A stretch of DNA of 64,000 nt from Nitrosopumilus sp. (GTDB lineage Archaea > Thermoproteota > Nitrososphaeria > Nitrososphaerales > Nitrosopumilaceae), in the NCBI GenBank assembly GCA_965249555.1, contig OZ252243.1, positions 480,001-544,000 of the forward strand, given 5' to 3'. A program made the translations under genes and the position numbers. Shown here piece by piece: positions 11,970-56,651 of the stretch (positions within the stretch are counted from its first letter, which is position 1; the number at the start of each line of letters is the position of its first letter). Under the pieces are notes generated by a model. The model worked only from the letters and a program-made list of their open reading frames with translations. It ran no database searches and was not told the origin of the DNA.

Positions 11970-12064
11970 TATCCATGTGAATTGTTTTTAAACATTTCCC
12001 ACTTTTTTGCATCCAGAGGCATAGCCTTCGCTAGGGAATGCTTTCAATCAAAAGATGACGGACA
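11970..12064 (-). mobile_element. Solo right-end fragment of IS110 family A
   Basis: Near-identical to 53297-53391. Confidence 0.88.
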
Positions 12065-21220: not shown

Positions 21221-21314
21221 TAGAAAAAAGAGATTAGCACGCTGGCCTAACCTATCTAAGAAGTAATGCTATTACTATTCATTTTTTAATAAACCTTGTG
21301 GGCGTGTAGCATGA
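21221..21314 (+). repeat. Truncated second copy of the leader plus 5' end of the tRNA-like element (partner ~26677-26770)
   Basis: Shared AAAAGAGATTAGCACGCTGGCCT..TATTACTATTCATT..TAATAAA..TTGTGGGCGTGTAGCATGA. Confidence 0.85.
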
Positions 21315-22033
21315 GGACTGGTCTTTACGGCAGCATACACTCTTGAATTAATCTCTGCAATTTGCAGATTGATATGGCCTATCTGTCGTAGAAATCCATC
21401 TATGCGATAGTCACCTAGGGAGATGAGTCTTTCGTTGTATGTTACAGTGAACGGGACCCCGGGTATCTTGATTCCCTCTTGCAACAAAATTCCATGAACA
21501 GAATTTTTGAGAGAGGTCCTCCACTGAACGAGTTTTTTTCTGTATCTTACCAGCTGGCGATGTTTTACTATCTTTTTGTTTGTAATATGGCATGTTGCAA
21601 TGTATCCCCCGCGCAAAAGATCTGCCAGTATCCTGGCATCAATCTTGTCTGTTTTTTTTGATGCAGCTATTGCCTTTGTAAGATAGGGGTTTGAAAGTGT
21701 AACATTTTTGTATCCCAATTCATCTGTAAGAAATCCATACGTGTTATACTGATGATGACTCCATGACCATATTGGCATGAATCGGTATTCCTGTAAAATG
21801 TTTCCTGATTGATTCATGAGTGTTCTCAACTTTTATGTTTTGTAATATCTTTCCGCCATTATCCATTGTTGCCACTTGAAGAAATTCCTTGTGCAAGTCA
21901 ATGCCAACATACATGCACTTGTCTTTTTTTGCCCTAATCTGTTTCTTTGAGGACGATGGATTACGACTCCTGGACCTGGGTTCATTTCCTATGCTATCTG
22001 AATTCCTTCTTTTGGTATTCACATATAGTTATC
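21315..22033 (-). mobile_element. IS110 family A, 5' fragment, frameshifted
   Basis: Near-identical to ~53889-54612; YVGIDLHK, KKTDKIDA. Confidence 0.9.
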
Positions 22034-24881: not shown

Positions 24882-25018
24882 CCTAAAAGTAGTATTATAC
24901 TTTTAATATCTTTCTTTGCCAAAAATCATTTGTTCTGACTGATTTTCCAGCATCCTAACTTAACACCTCAGCACCCGAATTTAACAGCAAGCTGAAATCA
25001 ATGAAAACACCCTAAGAT

Positions 25019-25231
25019 TATCCATGTGAATTGTTTTTATACATTTCCCACTTTTTTGCATCCCAAGGCATACCTTCGCTGGAGAATGCTTTCAATCAAA
25101 AGATGACGGACATGTATCCATACAAGGCTTGTCCCTCAACATATAAAACGCGACTTGCACAGTCCTAACTGTAATTCTGTACAAATTCTCTCCTCTCTTT
25201 TAGCATCCAGTAAATCACTCGCAGAATCTGG
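25019..25231 (-). mobile_element. IS110 family A 3' end (internally deleted), truncating the integrase
   Basis: Matches ~53297-53571 minus about 60 bp. Confidence 0.88.
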
Positions 25232-47581: not shown

Positions 47582-47976
47582 CTCCCATACGAAATCGTCT
47601 CCAACCCTACTGAGGACACTTACTAGCGTGCTTTGCTGAATCAGGACATCTCAGATATGCTTTGCATCTTCTTATACTTTCGTTGTGTCAGTTCATGATT
47701 TTGTGTACGATACTCTTCAGAATTTGTTAGCATGTACCAGATTATTGCAAGCATCTGTCTTGCAGCTGCCACCTTTGCCTTTTGTTTTCCTCTTCTCTTT
47801 GCAATTCTGAAATAGAATGATCCCATTCTTTCATCAAATCGTACTGTAGTATTTGCAGCCTCTACCATTGCGTTACGTAACCATGCAGAACCCCTCTTTG
47901 TTATTCCGCCTCCTCGGTGCACATCTGCACTATCCCTGTGCGACGGTGCAAGTCCTGCATATGAGACTAGTTTTTC
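47582..47976 (-). mobile_element. IS110 family B 3' fragment, cut by IS66
   Basis: KLVSYAGLAPSHRDSA..ITKRGSAWLR; same right end as 58763 and 61643. Confidence 0.88.
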
Positions 47977-49439
47977 GTATGTATCAACCTTCACGCACAA
48001 ATCAATATCATTACACAAAAAGATCTAAGATCAACTAAATCATCACACAACACATGCCAGATTGTGATCATGAGAAAATCATCATACAATTACAAGAAGG
48101 GATGAAACAACAGCAAGAAGAGATAAAACAACTACAAGAAGAGTCAAAACAACAAAAACTAATCATAGAGAATCTCATAGAATCAAACAAGGAACTGCAA
48201 AAAAAGCTGTCATATTATGAGAATGCGCACTCTCCGCCATCAAAGAATTCCCTTGAATGGAGAAAGCAAAAAAGACAACACAGACAGTCAGGTGAACTAA
48301 GACGTGGTGGAATAGCAGGACACGTTGGCAAGACACAGAAATTCAGACCAACTAGCACCAAACACCACAGATCAGATGCATGTCCTAAATGCGGTAGTGA
48401 AAATATTCATCAAACCAAAACCTGCAAAAGGATAATGGTTGAGATTCCTCCACCAACACCCTACGGTATAACTGAGCATGTTTTGAATCAATACATCTGC
48501 ATGGACTGTTCTGATAATTTTCAAACCACGGGAAACCTTCCACCACATGGATGTTTTGATGGTTCAGTGATACGTGAGGTCGTCTCACTGTTCTCAAAGA
48601 GAATGCCATACGATACCATCAGAACCACACTCTATGAAAGATATGGATTAGAAATCAGCAATACAACCGTACAATCCATTCTTCGCAACGGTAGTGTGAT
48701 GTTAGAGTCATTTTACAATACAATCCACAGCGAAATCGTGACTGAAAAGATTCTCGGAATCGATGAGACAGGATTTTCAATTGATGGAAATACTGGATGG
48801 ATGTGGGTTGCAAGAAGCAAGACTAGTGCACAGTATGCCTTGGAGTACAGCAGAGGTGCCAATGTTCTAAAAAAGTACTGGAAGAAATTCAAAGGAACCC
48901 TAGTGTCTGACGGATATGCTCCGTACAGGACAGTATTTTGTGATAACACAAAGCAGAGATGCACCGCACACCTGCAGCGCGATGCCAAATATCTGGCAAT
49001 AAAATCAAAAGACAAAAAGGCCAGGATTCTATATGAGAAACTCTCAGGGATGCTAGGTCATGCCAGGGTTTGGAGTGTAGGTAATCGTCATACAAAACGG
49101 CGGGAAACGTACAGGGATGATTTACTAAAACAGCTGGACCGTATCATTGCACGATATTTGAAAGGTGATACGGAGATGGTTCAGTTTGGCAAGAAGCTAA
49201 AGACTGCAAGGAACAGCATGTTTACGTTTGTCATGGATGGCGATGTCCCGTCAACTAACAATGATGCAGAGAATTCCATTCGAAAGTGCGTGATGCAGAG
49301 GAATGTTCGCGGGCAGATGAAGAGTGATCAGGGCATGAGGATGATCTCAGTCTTTCTCACATGCTTTGAGACATGGAGAATAAGGGAATTGAACATGTTT
49401 TCTGAGATGGCAAAATACATCTAAGTGCTTGATTCATAC
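47977..49439 (+). mobile_element. Single-ORF IS66-family (ISBst12-like) element
   Basis: TIR GTATGTATCAA / TTGATTCATAC; no target duplication seen. Confidence 0.85.
48054..49424 (+). CDS. IS66-family transposase (intact ORF)
   Basis: Coiled coil, NAHSPPS, CPKC, IDETG, VSDGYAPY, QRCTAHLQR, TNNDAENSIR. Confidence 0.92.
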   Translation: MPDCDHEKIIIQLQEGMKQQQEEIKQLQEESKQQKLIIENLIESNKELQKKLSYYENAHSPPSKNSLEWRKQKRQHRQSGELRRGGIAGHVGKTQKFRPTSTKHHRSDACPKCGSENIHQTKTCKRIMVEIPPPTPYGITEHVLNQYICMDCSDNFQTTGNLPPHGCFDGSVIREVVSLFSKRMPYDTIRTTLYERYGLEISNTTVQSILRNGSVMLESFYNTIHSEIVTEKILGIDETGFSIDGNTGWMWVARSKTSAQYALEYSRGANVLKKYWKKFKGTLVSDGYAPYRTVFCDNTKQRCTAHLQRDAKYLAIKSKDKKARILYEKLSGMLGHARVWSVGNRHTKRRETYRDDLLKQLDRIIARYLKGDTEMVQFGKKLKTARNSMFTFVMDGDVPSTNNDAENSIRKCVMQRNVRGQMKSDQGMRMISVFLTCFETWRIRELNMFSEMAKYI

Positions 49440-49595
49440 GCGGATAGGTCCTAATAAAGGGATGAAGATAGCATTGAGGAAGAAGCCTCGTATGGATACA
49501 TGTCCGTCATCTTTTGATTGAAAGTATTCCCTAGCGAAGGCTATGCCTTGGGATGCAAAAAAGTAGGAAATGTTTAAAAACAATTCACATGGATA
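49440..49595 (+). mobile_element. IS110 family A right-end fragment
   Basis: Reverse complement of ~53297-53452. Confidence 0.88.
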
Positions 49596-52567: not shown

Positions 52568-53190
52568 GCAAATTTATTTTTATAGATATGACAAGTAATG
52601 ATCTAAATTCTTTTGACAAAAATTATTCTAAGGAAACAAATAATGCTAGGAAATTTGTCAAAAATTTAAGTCGTACTAGTGGTATTTATGCAGTGGCACA
52701 TTTTGATTTAACTGGATCAACTAAAAAAATGATCAAAAATCAAGAGAATACTATCACAGAAATGTTAACACATAATAAAATTTGTAGAAATTTAATTGAA
52801 AAAAATGGAGGAATAGTGATTAAAGAACTTGGTGATGCAATACTAGCTACATATTCAAATGCACCACAAGCTTGTCAATGTGCATTAAATGTAATTTATA
52901 ATTTTCAAAAATATGGAAAAGGTATTATCACCAAAGTAACTATAACTGCTGGCACGCTTGAAAAAATTAAGACTTCGAAAGAATTTGATATTTATGGTGT
53001 ACCTGTAAATCTTTGTAATAGAATGTCAAAATATGCATTTAAAAATTCCATTATTATTGAAGAAAAAAGATATGATGATATAAAATCATGGTTGCCTAGG
53101 GATGAAAGACTTGTATTTAGAAATCCAAAAATTGAATCATTGGATGATTTTGGATCGATTGCTATTCGTAGGATTACTCTAAAAAAATAA
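52564..53190 (+). CDS. Class III nucleotidyl (probably adenylate) cyclase
   Basis: FDLTGST, KELGDA, FDIYG.PVNLCNRM; GTGA overlap with the upstream gene. Confidence 0.88.
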   Translation: MSKFIFIDMTSNDLNSFDKNYSKETNNARKFVKNLSRTSGIYAVAHFDLTGSTKKMIKNQENTITEMLTHNKICRNLIEKNGGIVIKELGDAILATYSNAPQACQCALNVIYNFQKYGKGIITKVTITAGTLEKIKTSKEFDIYGVPVNLCNRMSKYAFKNSIIIEEKRYDDIKSWLPRDERLVFRNPKIESLDDFGSIAIRRITLKK

Positions 53191-53296
53191 TAAAAAATAA
53201 AACTTTCAAAGATATTACGTAAAATACATGCTATTTGGTTTTGGTTAGTTGCATTATTTGCATTTACCTTTGGATTTGTGCCTATATTTTTGTATG

Positions 53297-54612
53297 TATC
53301 CATGTGAATTGTTTTTATACATTTCCCACTTTTTTGCATCCCGAAGCATAGCCTTCGCTAGGGAATGCTTTCAAACAAAAGATGACGGACATGTATCCAT
53401 ACGAGGCTTGTTTCTCAATGCTATCTTCATCCCTTCGTTAGAACCTATCCGCAGTTATCAACCGAGGCCTGTCCCTCAACATACAAAACGCGACTTGCAC
53501 AGTCCTAACTGTAATTCTGTACAAATTCTCTCCTCTCTTTTAGCATCCAGTAAATCACTCGCAGAATCTGGGATGATGCAGCAACTATATCTTTTGATGA
53601 GCCTCTCTTTTTCTTAATGCGATTGTAAAATTTTGTAATGTCACTGTTCTTGTCATGTAGTGTATGGGCATGGACGCATTGGACAAGGGCCCATCGTAGT
53701 GTCATGCTTCCTCTTTTGGTTATGCTGCCGTGATGTAATCTGCAGAGTTTCTGACTGATGGCACGACTCCTGCATATGCGCATAACTTGTGAGAGTCATT
53801 GAATCTGTTAATATCTGCAATTTCTGCTGCAATAACTAGTGACGAGTAGTCACCAATTCCGGGTATTGATTTTATTATCATGGCATCAGGACTGGCCTTT
53901 ACAGCAGCATACACTCTTGAATTAATCTCTGCAATTTGCAGATTGATATGGCCTATCTGTCGTAGAAATCCATCTATGCGATAGTCACCTAGGGAGGTGA
54001 GTCTTTCGTTGTATGTTACAGTGAACGGGACCCCGGGTATCTTGATTCCCTCCTGTAACAAAATTCCATGAACAGAATTTTTGAGAGATGTCCTCCACTG
54101 AACAAGCTTTTTTCTGTATCTTACCAGTTGACGATGTTTTACTATCTTTTTGTTTGGAATATGGCATGTTGCAATGTATCCCCCACGCAAAAGATCTGCC
54201 AGTATCCTGGCATCAATCTTGTCTGTTTTTTTTGATGCAGCTATTGCCTTTGTAAGATAGGGGTTTGAAAGTGTAACATTTTTGTATCCCAATTCATCTG
54301 TAAGAAATCTATACGTGTTATACCAGACTGATGATGATTCCATGACAATATTGGCATGAATTGGTATGTCTGTAAAATGTTTCCTGATTGATTCATGAGT
54401 GTTCTCAACTTTTATGTTTTGTAATATCTTTCCGTCATTATTCATTGTTGCCACTTGAAGAAATTTCTTGTGCAAGTCAATGCCAACATACATGCCCTTG
54501 TCTTTTTTTGCCCTAATCTGTTTCTTTGAGGACGATTGATTACGACTCCTGGACCTGGGTTCATTTCCTATGCTATCTGAATTCCTTCTTTTGGTATTCA
54601 CATATAGTTATC
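53297..54612 (-). mobile_element. Full-length IS110/IS1111-type element (family A); transposase 54601-53505 frameshifted near 53730
   Basis: GIDLHK, KKTDKIDA, SIPGIG, YAGVVP, KRGS; sub-terminal IR ATTCACAT/ATGTGAAT; TATC core at both ends; ~205-bp downstream non-coding end. Confidence 0.9.
53301..53504 (-). ncRNA. Predicted bridge/seek RNA of IS110 family A
   Basis: Two parallel GAGG/CCTC-type hairpin modules adjacent to 7-mers matching the donor junction and the target. Confidence 0.65.
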
Positions 54613-54699
54613 ATTGAGCATCTGACATTTCTTTATGAATCATGAAGACATGTTTGTGTTGTTGTTAGATCCATATTATCATCAAATATTTACAAAATG

Positions 54700-54830
54700 A
54701 ACAGTTTTAGGATGAGTTGGAAAAACTATCTCTGGAATCATATGCGCCATCAGCCAGAACTTTTGTTATTTTACTGCCTATCTTTTCTGTCTTAACGTCA
54801 ACTACCCCATGAATTTTCAAGAATCTGCGT
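54700..54830 (-). pseudogene. IS5-like transposase remnant
   Basis: KITKVLADGAYDSR motif by hand translation. Confidence 0.5.
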
Positions 54831-54890
54831 CTCTGATTCCATTTCTGTTCCATCCATTAATAATCTAAAATCAGATGGTCAATCATGCAA

Positions 54891-55016
54891 TACGGTAATT
54901 AAGCGTAAAAGTTTCTCTGACTGGAGCGGACCAATCTTTGCACAGCCCTGCAGGTATGCTCAGACCGGTAAACGTTTGAATCAAACTATTGTGGGTTTGA
55001 AAGTTTAATTACCGTA
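54891..55016. mobile_element. 126-bp MITE with TA-ended inverted repeats
   Basis: TACGGTAATTAA ... TTAATTACCGTA. Confidence 0.75.
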
Positions 55017-55057
55017 CTTGTACACTATATTCCATGCAAACAGATCTTAGATGGACA

Positions 55058-55457
55058 ATGGAAGAAGTACAAGGATTTGCAAAATGGGATGCAGACCGTA
55101 AGAGTGGCAAACTAGGTGCACCCAAGCATTTCAAAACGGTAGATGAACTAGAGAGTTGGTTACATAAGCAAGACTAACCACTGGTCCGTTGATGTTCCTT
55201 CACTAGATTTTAAAAAACAGTTTGATAAATTACAGTCATCATCACAAGAAAAAATTATTCAACATTTAAAAGAACTAATTGCAATGGCTAATCCTGAAGA
55301 TCATAATTTTTCAATTGACTGTCCCAGAATACAGGGATTCAATCATGCTGTAAAATATATTCTTGATTCAAATCTGACATTGCTTGTTGCATTAGATAGG
55401 ATAGATAGCGGAGTGAAGATTGACCGCATAATTACTCTTTATTCTTGTTCTGAATAA
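55058..55457 (+). pseudogene. Degenerate antitoxin + RelE-like toxin pair
   Basis: ..KHFKTVDELESWL* overlapping a 96-codon frame (55170-55457, WSVD..FKKQFDKL..QEKII) that lacks ATG (AAG instead). Confidence 0.5.
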
Positions 55458-55473
55458 TGCTATTCTGAATCAA

Positions 55474-56552
55474 TAGCGAAGAGTCAAAGTTCGCGAACTA
55501 AAAATCATCAAAACAAAAGACTTTTTGATCACTACACACAATGAAACACATGAACAAGTTAGAACAGCTTGAAGCAGCATACAAAAAGAAAAACTCCAAA
55601 GATATAGTCAGGATGCTTGCAGTACTAATGGTTCTCAAAGAGAGTAAGGAATTAGAGTACACCACACAAACACTATACCGCTGTACAAACTGGGTACGCA
55701 AATGGGTTGATCGTTTTAACGTAGATGGCCTATATGATCACCCAAGGAGTGAAAGACCATGTGTAATCCCAAAGAAGCAAATGAATTCTATCATGTTCAA
55801 AATTATGTCGACACTATTTACACCTGTAATGCTGCAGCAGACAATATTTGATTCTACTGGAATAAAATTTCACATAACACATGTCAGAAAAATAATGCGC
55901 CAGTATGGAATGTCTGCTAAAACTGCACAAAAATATCACATCAATCATGCAAGTGCAATAGCCGTGCGCAGCTGGGCAGCAACGCATGAAAAAGAGAATT
56001 CCACGCCTAAAAAAGAGTGGATTCACCATTGCAATGCTTGATGAGGCATTCTTTGTCAGGGATGTAAAGGCAGGACGAAAATATTGCTCACCAGTTGCCA
56101 AAAGAATATTTCTCCCATATGTGGGAGACCATGAGAGTTTGGCAGTGTATGGAACAGTTACAATCAATGGAGACCAACTGTTTAGAATTTATAAAAAATT
56201 CAACGGTATAACATTTGTAGAATATCTAAAAGAGATACACTACAAATATGGTAAAATTGCGTTGATACTTGACAGGGCATCAGTGCACAAATCAAAGAAG
56301 GTCAAGGACTTTTTGACAGATAATCCAGATGTTAAACTGATTTGGCTACCAAAAGGATCCACCATATCTAAACATGATAGAGCAGTGTTGGAAAATAAGC
56401 ATGTGTTGTTGGTATCAGAATATTATGCAACGTTTACAATAATGAATAATTTAGTGTCACAATACTTTGGAACAAAAAAATTCAAACTTGATGTTGTTAA
56501 TTATATTTTTAGAAATCCTGCAAAGATGTTCACGAACTTTTGATCGTCGCTA
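55474..56552 (+). mobile_element. IS630-family element (two frameshifted ORFs 55541-56041 and 55986-56543)
   Basis: HTH ORF plus DEAFF..LILDRASVH..WLPKGS; imperfect TIR TAGCGA..AAAGTTCG.GAAC; TA at the right end. Confidence 0.88.
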
Positions 56553-56651
56553 TACATGTCCGTCATCTTTTGTTTGAAAGCATTCTCCAGCGAAAGCTAT
56601 GCCTTGGGATGTAAAAAAGTGGGAAATGTTTAAAAACAATTCACATGGATA
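56553..56651 (+). mobile_element. IS110 family A right-end fragment
   Basis: Reverse complement of ~53297-53395. Confidence 0.88.

Follow-up and report, generated by a model that had tools for sequence, protein, structure and literature searches.

How does an insertion sequence in a marine archaeon choose the place at which it inserts? The question is raised by a 64,000-nucleotide stretch of DNA from Nitrosopumilus sp. (GCA_965249555.1, contig OZ252243.1, positions 480,001 to 544,000), hereafter the window, which corresponds to C1:480001-544000 of a genome consisting of one 2.23-Mb contig with 34% G+C and which contains on its minus strand, at 53299-54610, a full-length but defective IS110-family element with the IS1111 layout. 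Bridge and seek RNAs that guide such elements were described in bacteria in 2024 (PMC11187229, PMC11208160), and a preprint cites 662 archaeal IS110 homologues (10.1101/2024.06.21.599552); these and the other papers cited below were available in part, and what we take from them refers to those parts. A literature search on bridge RNAs of IS110 elements in archaea or Nitrosopumilus returned no report for ammonia-oxidising archaea, although the supplementary tables of the 2024 papers may include archaeal IS1111 members. An earlier note, made from the letters of the window, had proposed an IS1111-type element with a two-loop guide RNA 3' of its gene, and the protein domains, the NCBIfam match and the layout bear out the type of element. 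We put the probability that this is an archaeal IS1111-type element with a two-loop bridge/seekRNA-like guide RNA at about 85%, with the roles of the two loops the reverse of those first proposed.

The frame of the window copy matches DEDD_Tnp_IS110 (PF01548, at 1e-23) and Transposase_20 (PF02371) of Pfam, and an intact copy from the same genome does likewise, both domains being above cut-off in each case, as is usual for the IS110 family with its RuvC-like DEDD domain at the N terminus and its Tnp domain at the C terminus. The intact protein scores 225 bits (cut-off 140) on the NCBIfam model "IS110 family RNA-guided transposase" (NF033542) and aligns over its full length with IS621 (8wt6; E 1.4e-13). 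In this alignment GID, the E of IVMES, TDKID and NSA stand opposite the GID, the E of CIEAT, TDTVD and ESG of 8wt6_A, which places a D, E, D..D and Ser in the catalytic motifs, presumably those of the residues named D11, E60, D102, D105 and S241 for IS621 (PMC11208158). No target-site duplication was found, donor and target having only TA in common, as expected for an IS110-family element. With respect to the IS1111 layout as defined in PMC11187229 and PMC11208160, a short left end is followed by the transposase gene and then by a non-coding RNA of ~140 nt, with ~205 nt of non-coding sequence downstream of the gene against ~10 nt upstream of its GTG. The 8-bp subterminal inverted repeats ATGTGAAT and ATTCACAT (7-17 bp in IS1111 elements; PMC11208160) lie where the earlier note had located them; outside them the left end extends by 5-7 nt (ACTAT counted from the TA core, AACTAT up to the repeat) and the right end by 3-4 nt (GGA(T)). 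Because TA stands at each junction (53297-98 and 54609-10), the ends of the element are ambiguous by 2 nt. The motif in the serine region reads GVVPSVRNSA (G..P....SA); the motif of the IS1111 group is GL-P----S(t)G, with TA occasional (PMC11187229). The element is best assigned to the IS1111 group by its layout, its subterminal repeats and the order of its guides.

The transposase reading frame runs from GTG at 54601 to 53720 (293 codons), and the C-terminal part of the protein lies in another frame (53783-53505). Comparison with three intact copies placed the frameshift that the earlier note had reported at a 4-nt deletion near 53738, just past the Ser motif; the window copy further has in-frame deletions of 12 nt (~54529) and 3 nt (~54230) and 2 extra bases at 53500-01. 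Among 12 genome copies whose frames were checked, nine are broken and three are intact (371 aa; C1:193196-194522, C1:282106-283432 and G000:C1:709345-710673). We conclude that the window copy is dead and non-autonomous and that the intact copies are predicted to encode a 371-aa DEDD/Ser recombinase; with three of these at hand, the remark that the window frame could readily be mended loses its point. When the intact protein was used as query, the search returned 76 loci in Nitrosopumilus, Cenarchaeum and Nitrosopumilaceae records (45-88% identity), in agreement with the thaumarchaeal origin first suggested, and in other genomes relatives are present in many identical copies. The closest matches outside the family are haloarchaeal IS110 genes (33-37% identity).

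Downstream of the gene, 23 distinct regions from Nitrosopumilaceae homologues were aligned, and a consensus fold emerged that consists of an outer stem P1, a module 1 (stem P2, internal loop and hairpin P3) and a module 2 (stem P4, internal loop and hairpin P5). The two parallel modules noticed in the window are thus real, each being a stem, an internal loop and a hairpin, with near-identical hairpins, conserved in all 23 homologues. The fold has 26 pairs, and 99.2% of cells are paired; compensatory change was seen in 10 pairs, compared with 4.0 ± 1.1 in shuffled alignments (0 of 500 reached 10) and with two at most once the partners were slid by 1-3 columns, so that the covariation to which the earlier note had looked for support is present. 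Several invariant G.U pairs fix the transposase-sense strand as the RNA strand. In the window copy P5 has an A.C mismatch that is G-C in other copies, and other contigs have C at 53413. A covariance model built from the alignment found 20 full-length and four partial RNA copies in the genome, the window copy scoring lowest of the 20 (117.3 bits). Of a sample of 150 other genomes of the same family, 19 gave a match, and nine of the 27 genera in the sample, own genus counted, were represented; no match was found in a sample of 131 genomes from 33 other families of the phylum. We infer that the RNA is transcribed and bound by the recombinase.

Which DNA each loop would read was determined from the variation between copies. 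When the non-coding ends of the 20 genome copies were aligned, variation was clustered in two short segments around a conserved hairpin, namely the 5' strand of module 1 (0.334 differences per site) and the variable part of its 3' strand (0.478), compared with 0.067 in the rest of the non-coding end and 0.000 in both loop strands of module 2. The 5' strand, TTTTGTATGT, is the reverse complement of the window copy's own right flank, ACATACAAAA, at 10 of 10 positions, and in the copy at C1:282106 the corresponding strand matches a different flank, ACAATCATAA, also at 10 of 10. In a comparison of 90 distinct elements, which fall into 32 guide classes, the right-target guide had a mean longest run of matches of 6.77 with the own flank and 2.93 with the flanks of elements bearing a different guide; permutation of the guide classes gave 3.20 ± 0.32, and 0 of 2000 permutations reached the observed value, figures that overstate independence because copies and relatives are kin. 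The 3' strand consists of 5-6 variable bases that repeat the left flank, followed by TAAC(T), in which the TA core runs on into the start of the left end. Its identity was 3.34 with the own left flank and 1.37 with others (67 elements; 0 of 2000 permutations reached it, read with the same reservation), and perfect fits include loci L005, L008, L016 and L061 and the copy in an IS66 repeat (GGTTGATAACT, 11 nt). This test scores the mosaic or nested loci L037, L043, L048, L067, L072 and L076 as poor matches; when the nested left end was read through by eye, L067 matched at 5 of 5 bases and the other five at 1-3 of 5. The RNA loops thus covary with target and, as described below, with donor DNA, as is characteristic of bridge and seek RNAs. 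Because both of its strands are hypervariable and track the flanks, module 1 is assigned as the target loop. AGTTATC (53453-59, and again at the element end, 54606-12), which had been taken for the donor guide, does contain the TAAC(T) match to the left end, but it is the 3' part of the left-target guide, with adjoining bases that vary with the left flank; the main target guide, at 53479-88, had been overlooked. The complement of the top strand lies 5' of the complement of the bottom strand, which is the order in IS1111 seekRNAs (PMC11187229) and the reverse of that in IS621 (PMC11208160).

Module 2 follows the ends of the element itself. Its 3' strand repeats the right-end tip and the core (ATGGAT-A, the tip reading ATGGAT or ATAGAT), and at the one base that varies all 67 elements compared, 43 with G and 24 with A, have the corresponding right end (CACATGGAT or CACATAGAT); L017 was excluded because of a deletion at this place. 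In its 5' strand, ATAG accompanies the left end AACTAT at 20 loci and ATGG accompanies AACCAT at seven, none of the 27 tabulated loci being discordant. As module 2 is invariant within the genome and tracks the element's own ends, we assign it as the donor loop. Whether the bases that follow GATA in module 2 agree with the flank differs from relative to relative, and the 3-base extension of the ATGGATA match into the IS66 tip may be chance or a handshake-type contact. Three loci discordant for the right-donor guide that were aligned, L037, L043 and L076 (Nitrosopumilus metagenome-assembled genome records), are mosaics, with 94-100% identity to the L077 subtype over the first 900-1000 nt and 88-100% identity to the L004 subtype over the last 300-400 nt (gene end, RNA and right end).

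We then compared junctions throughout the genome. Read in the direction of the transposase gene, the right end is ..ATTCACATGGAT, and at 20 of 29 junctions the next letters are ACAT, giving GATACAT; the left flanks are diverse. The 9 nt GTATGTATC are the outermost bases of an IS66-family element, the left terminal repeat of which reads GTATGTATC-AACCTTCAC.. uninterrupted in 45 of 47 copies. ATGTATC, which adjoins four of the five right ends in the window (here at 53294-53300; the junction at 25016-25023 deviates), is therefore target DNA, and the possibility, raised in the earlier note, that it belongs to the end of the element falls away. The intact copy at C1:709345-710673 splits one IS66 left repeat exactly (left ..GAAGGTT-GATA-ACTAT, right ..CATG-GATA-CATAC); the left junctions at window 22033 and C1:1345528 are at the matching place in the IS66 right repeat, ..AAGTGCTT|GAT; and eight copies have 31 nt of the IS66 left repeat ahead of a variant left-end tip. 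The intact copy at C1:282106-283432 sits in a different repeat, with flanks that match its guides at 10/10 and over 9 nt. An orthologous empty site for this copy was sought in 40 genomes of the genus, and because its flank is repetitive and had no clear orthologue there, paralogous empty sites were used instead. The paralogues at C1:287223, 582146 and 1459754 read ..GTTATGATTGT|AAAAATCATC.. (+ strand), with the element between the two halves when occupied. At this site the donor, ..GGA-TA-ACT.., and the target, ..TTT-TA-CAA.., have TA alone in common, without duplication, and we therefore take the core to be TA; a core of 3 or 4 nt (GAT, GATA or TATC) was rejected on the same ground. The IS66 target GGTTGA-TA-CATAC and the junctions of relatives are consistent with a TA core.

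Taken together, the four guide segments suggest the following mechanism. The 5' strand of RNA loop 1 would pair over 9-10 nt with the target's top strand to the right of the crossover, and the 3' strand over 5-6 nt with the bottom strand to the left, continuing through the TA core into the left end. Loop 2 would bind the donor, its 3' strand matching the right-end tip and core and its 5' strand pairing discontinuously with CTAT of the left end. The excised circle, the formation of which we infer, would be joined at TA and inserted at a target TA without duplication. Its predicted junction is ATTCACATATAGTTATCCATGTGAAT, i.e. ATTCACATATAGT-TA-TCCATGTGAAT, which is the junction that the earlier note had derived from the ends and which is the same whether the core is read as TATC or TA. 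In this genome the usual target would be the tips of IS66 terminal repeats, GGTTGA-TA-CATAC or GCTTGA-TA-CATAC, and variant copies with other guides occupy other repeats.

The opposite assignment, in which module 2 (ATGTATC, 53391-97) reads the target and module 1 (AGTTATC) the donor, was the one given in the earlier note, and it has points in its favor, as the 3' strand of module 2 together with its stem, ATGGATACAT, matches the right junction over 10 nt at the 20 of 29 junctions with GATACAT, and in some relatives (L040, L050, L055 and L077) the 2-5 bases that follow GATA agree with the beginning of the right flank, which would fit the handshake contact described for IS621 (PMC11208158). However, ATGTATC spans the end of the left-donor guide and stem P4 (53387-91), and the module 2 loop strands are identical in all 20 copies despite flanks such as ACAATC, AATCTT and AATTAC. 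Because the same strand occurs in relatives with quite different targets (AATTACA, AAATTTT and AATTCT), it does not choose the target; the one base of module 2 that varies tracks the element's own right end (67/67), whereas module 1 tracks both flanks. We regard the opposite assignment as very improbable. A further match in the earlier note, of CTCAATG (53414-20) with CATTGAG in the left flank (54612-18), involves strings that are present but looks like chance, because the RNA segment is constant in 20 copies and CTCAATG occurs in the flank at one of 21 left ends. Even less credit is due, in our view, to the idea that GATACATAC is simply a longer right end of the element, the likeness of the flanks being element sequence or a preference read by the protein rather than RNA guidance. 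GATACAT at 20 of 29 right junctions with diverse left flanks, and eight copies that lie between 31 nt of the IS66 left repeat on one side and GATACATAC on the other, in the manner of a unit with inverted termini, would look like this. Yet the same 9 nt end the IS66 element in 45 of 47 left repeats with no IS1111 copy adjoining, nine of the 29 right junctions lack GATACATAC, the empty sites of the C1:282106 copy have a different flank that its own guide matches at 10/10, and the flank tracks the guide across 32 guide classes.

It is less easy to dismiss, though in our judgement unlikely, that the family is extinct in this genome and that the guide-flank matches record past activity, with nothing functional now. 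The copies are 89-94% identical rather than near-identical, nine of the 12 examined have broken frames and many junctions are rearranged; against this, three copies retain the full 371-aa frame, two of these three have the best guide-to-flank fits on both sides, and relatives elsewhere have many identical copies. The assignment of a two-loop guide RNA with module 1 as target loop must itself be set against several observations that weigh the other way. The left flank fits poorly in the genome: 0-3 bases match in six of eight tabulated full copies, the window copy matches at 3 of 6 bases, and, although both of the best-fitting copies are intact, the remaining intact copy agrees with its guide at only 2 of 5. 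Later insertions, recombination among repeats or insertion on a one-sided match are possible reasons. Half-match recombination of IS621 has been reported from in vitro and Escherichia coli data (preprint 10.64898/2026.08.31.748434) and would explain junctions that match on the right side only; later rearrangement would do so equally well. The register of the right-target guide relative to TA shifts by 1-3 nt among subfamilies, the right-donor guide pairs discontinuously with the left end and is discordant at six mosaic loci, and the permutation tests are inflated by kinship. An Rfam scan of 53000-55000 with E up to 10 returned no family (best 19.7 bits against a gathering threshold of 51.5). 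The folding energy of the single sequence is unremarkable (z -0.45 and -0.22 for the two strands), and the fold accordingly rests on covariation. None of the five sequencing runs found is listed as an RNA run with this sequence, and in the contigs of four runs over 52700-55300 the element was nowhere bridged, and neither an empty site nor a circle junction was seen; one 806-nt skip was present in a single contig.

The features discussed here, together with further copies in the window and neighboring repeats, are listed in Table 1.

Table 1. Features of the IS1111-type element and its surroundings (window positions; sequences on the strand given, or as noted)
Feature	Position	Strand	Basis or remark
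IS1111-type IS110-family element	53299..54610	-	Pfam, genome copies, junction comparison, TA core from empty sites
Right-side target flank GTATGTA, then element TC; IS66-family terminal-repeat tip	53292..53298		Junction comparison
Subterminal inverted repeat, right-end arm ATGTGAAT (+ strand letters)	53302..53309		String located
Subterminal inverted repeat, left-end arm ATTCACAT (+ strand letters)	54596..54603		Contains GTG start
Transposase gene, broken	53505..54601	-	Compared with intact copies
Putative bridge/seekRNA-like non-coding RNA, two modules, begins at transposase stop codon	53367..53510	-	Covariance model, consensus fold
Module 1 5' loop strand, putative right-target guide, RNA TTTTGTATGT	53479..53488	-	Complementary to flank past right end
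Hairpin P3, module 1	53463..53478	-	Consensus fold
Module 1 3' loop strand, putative left-target guide, RNA GTTGA + TAAC	53454..53462	-	Repeats left junction
Module 2 5' loop strand, putative right-donor guide, AAGATAGCAT	53418..53427	-	Invariant in 20 copies
Hairpin P5, module 2	53402..53417	-	Consensus fold; CTCAATG (53414-20) overlaps
Module 2 3' loop strand, putative left-donor guide, TATGGATACA	53392..53401	-	Invariant in 20 copies
TATA-box-like octamer TATAAAAA, facing outward, near right end	53312..53319	-	Putative function
Left-end fragment of second copy	21309..22033	-	Joined to IS66 right repeat ..AAGTGCTT|GATAACTAT (transposase orientation)
Right-end fragment, single hybrid module	25023..25231	-	Deletion between hairpins P3 and P5
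Right-end fragment, module 2 only	49440..49591	+	Cut by IS66 element 47977-49439
Right-end fragment, 91 nt	11974..12064	-	Sequence match
Right-end fragment, 96 nt	56552..56647	+	Sequence match
Full IS66-family element "IS-X", main target of IS1111-type element	47977..49439	+	Pfam, NCBIfam
Left-end-side flank, ~107-bp repeat, 7 further genome copies	54613..54723		Repeat search

The genome contains 44 segments that match the element, nine of them full-length, and within the window its right-end sequence is present at five places (11975, 25024, 49563-90, 53302 and 56619-46), with none expected from 100 shuffles. The hybrid module of the fragment at 25023-25231 is made up of the target loop's 5' strand and the donor loop's 3' strand. 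Beyond the left end of the window copy the ~107-bp repeat directly adjoins it, and because of this the left junction is not a simple insertion into an IS66 repeat; five copies of this repeat stand after ..CTCC and one (C1:1563944) after ATGTATC. The IS66 element itself (Pfam DDE_Tnp_IS66, 4.6e-42; NCBIfam IS66, 227 bits) is 1442 bp long with 8-bp duplications and is present in ~27 full copies, and at G000:C1:2202955-2207296 it forms a head-to-tail triple array with 8-bp spacers. Its right tip reads GATTCATAC and not GATACATAC in 15 of 27 full copies, by which the TA core of the IS1111 target becomes TT. A second IS110-family gene (C-terminus ..HELTQRKYKKMQ.ISEMS) lies on the minus strand at window 47641-48018, cut by the IS66 element, and is also found at G000:C1:56615, 1584628, 1839576, 2075041 and 2220173; at five places its 3' side is fused, each time at the equivalent of window 53806, to the final 506 nt of the IS1111-type element. 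Further, at G000:C1:2221507-2221601 the IS66 right repeat is joined to internal donor-guide DNA of an IS1111 copy, ..GCTT|GATACATGTCC.., and it looks as if an internal site had been used as a pseudo-junction.

Mobile elements recur as targets among the relatives. For the element studied here the insertion point is a fixed place within the terminal inverted repeat of an archaeal IS66-family element, and other members of its family target the left-end tip of their own cousins. The guides of one subtype read TAACTAT^ATGTGAA, the left-end tip of a cousin subtype, and this subtype is inserted exactly there (loci concerned: L015, L019-L021, L051, L052, L066 and L074; L050, L068-L070 and L077). At L023, L024, L028 and L029 (positions 1290-1375) there are miniature IS66-type derivatives of ~85 nt with both terminal repeats, the right one of which is interrupted by an IS1111-type element of the L022 subtype.

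The position of the gene start bears on how the transposase might be expressed. Of 34 distinct left-end variants, 30 have an open frame all the way from the GTG within the left inverted repeat to the catalytic GID motif, and the 32-42 residues thereby added at the N terminus keep basic motifs (..R.SD.., ..KKQIR..) over 45-88% divergence. The gene thus seems to start ~8 nt inside the element, which leaves no room for a promoter. At the other end all 28 distinct right-end tails carry, at a constant distance of 14 nt from the end, an octamer of at least 90% A+T over eight consecutive columns, with variants that include TATAAAAA, TTTAAAAA and TTATAAA. In the predicted circle its center would come to lie ~26 nt upstream of the GTG. 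In archaea ~26 nt is the distance from the TATA box to the start of transcription. Because this spacing fits, it is plausible that the TATA-like box at the right end drives a leaderless transposase mRNA solely from the circle. We tentatively propose, at slightly less than even odds, that the recombinase family is confined to the Nitrosopumilaceae among the genomes searched, that its target loop is being re-aimed within single genomes, mostly at mobile elements, and that the recombinase is made only from the excised circle.

Compared with known systems, the element is closest in plan to the IS1111 elements with seekRNAs, ISEc11, ISPa11 and ISKpn4 (Siddiquee et al. 2024, PMC11187229), with which it shares a downstream non-coding RNA and subterminal repeats with extensions, and in which each element or related group likewise has its own target. 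It differs from them in its archaeal host, its distant protein, its G..P....SA motif and its lack of an Rfam match; both of its loops, known from sequence alone, are simple internal loops closed by near-identical hairpins. With IS621 (Durrant et al. 2024, PMC11208160; Hiraizumi et al. 2024, PMC11208158) it would share a two-loop RNA that reads both strands of target and donor, a dinucleotide core overlapped by the guides, a discontinuous right-donor pairing and, by alignment, the DEDD and Ser fold. Unlike in IS621, the RNA lies at the right end rather than the left, the left and right guides come in the opposite order, the core is TA and not CT, and the right-target guide is long (9-10 nt) and the left-target guide short (5-6 nt).

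The finding would add a compact system of a 331-371-aa recombinase and a ~140-nt RNA from mesophilic marine archaea, with a guide code that is legible from genomes alone and in which all four segments can be assigned. The corrected assignment changes which bases a reprogramming test must alter. Retargeting is exemplified in nature by this family, whose occupied sites can be set beside empty ones, and one insertion sequence is here found to home on another's ends. If the proposed re-aiming of the target loop and expression from the circle are true, guide reprogramming is on record in nature in these genomes, and the bacterial junction promoter has a counterpart in archaea.

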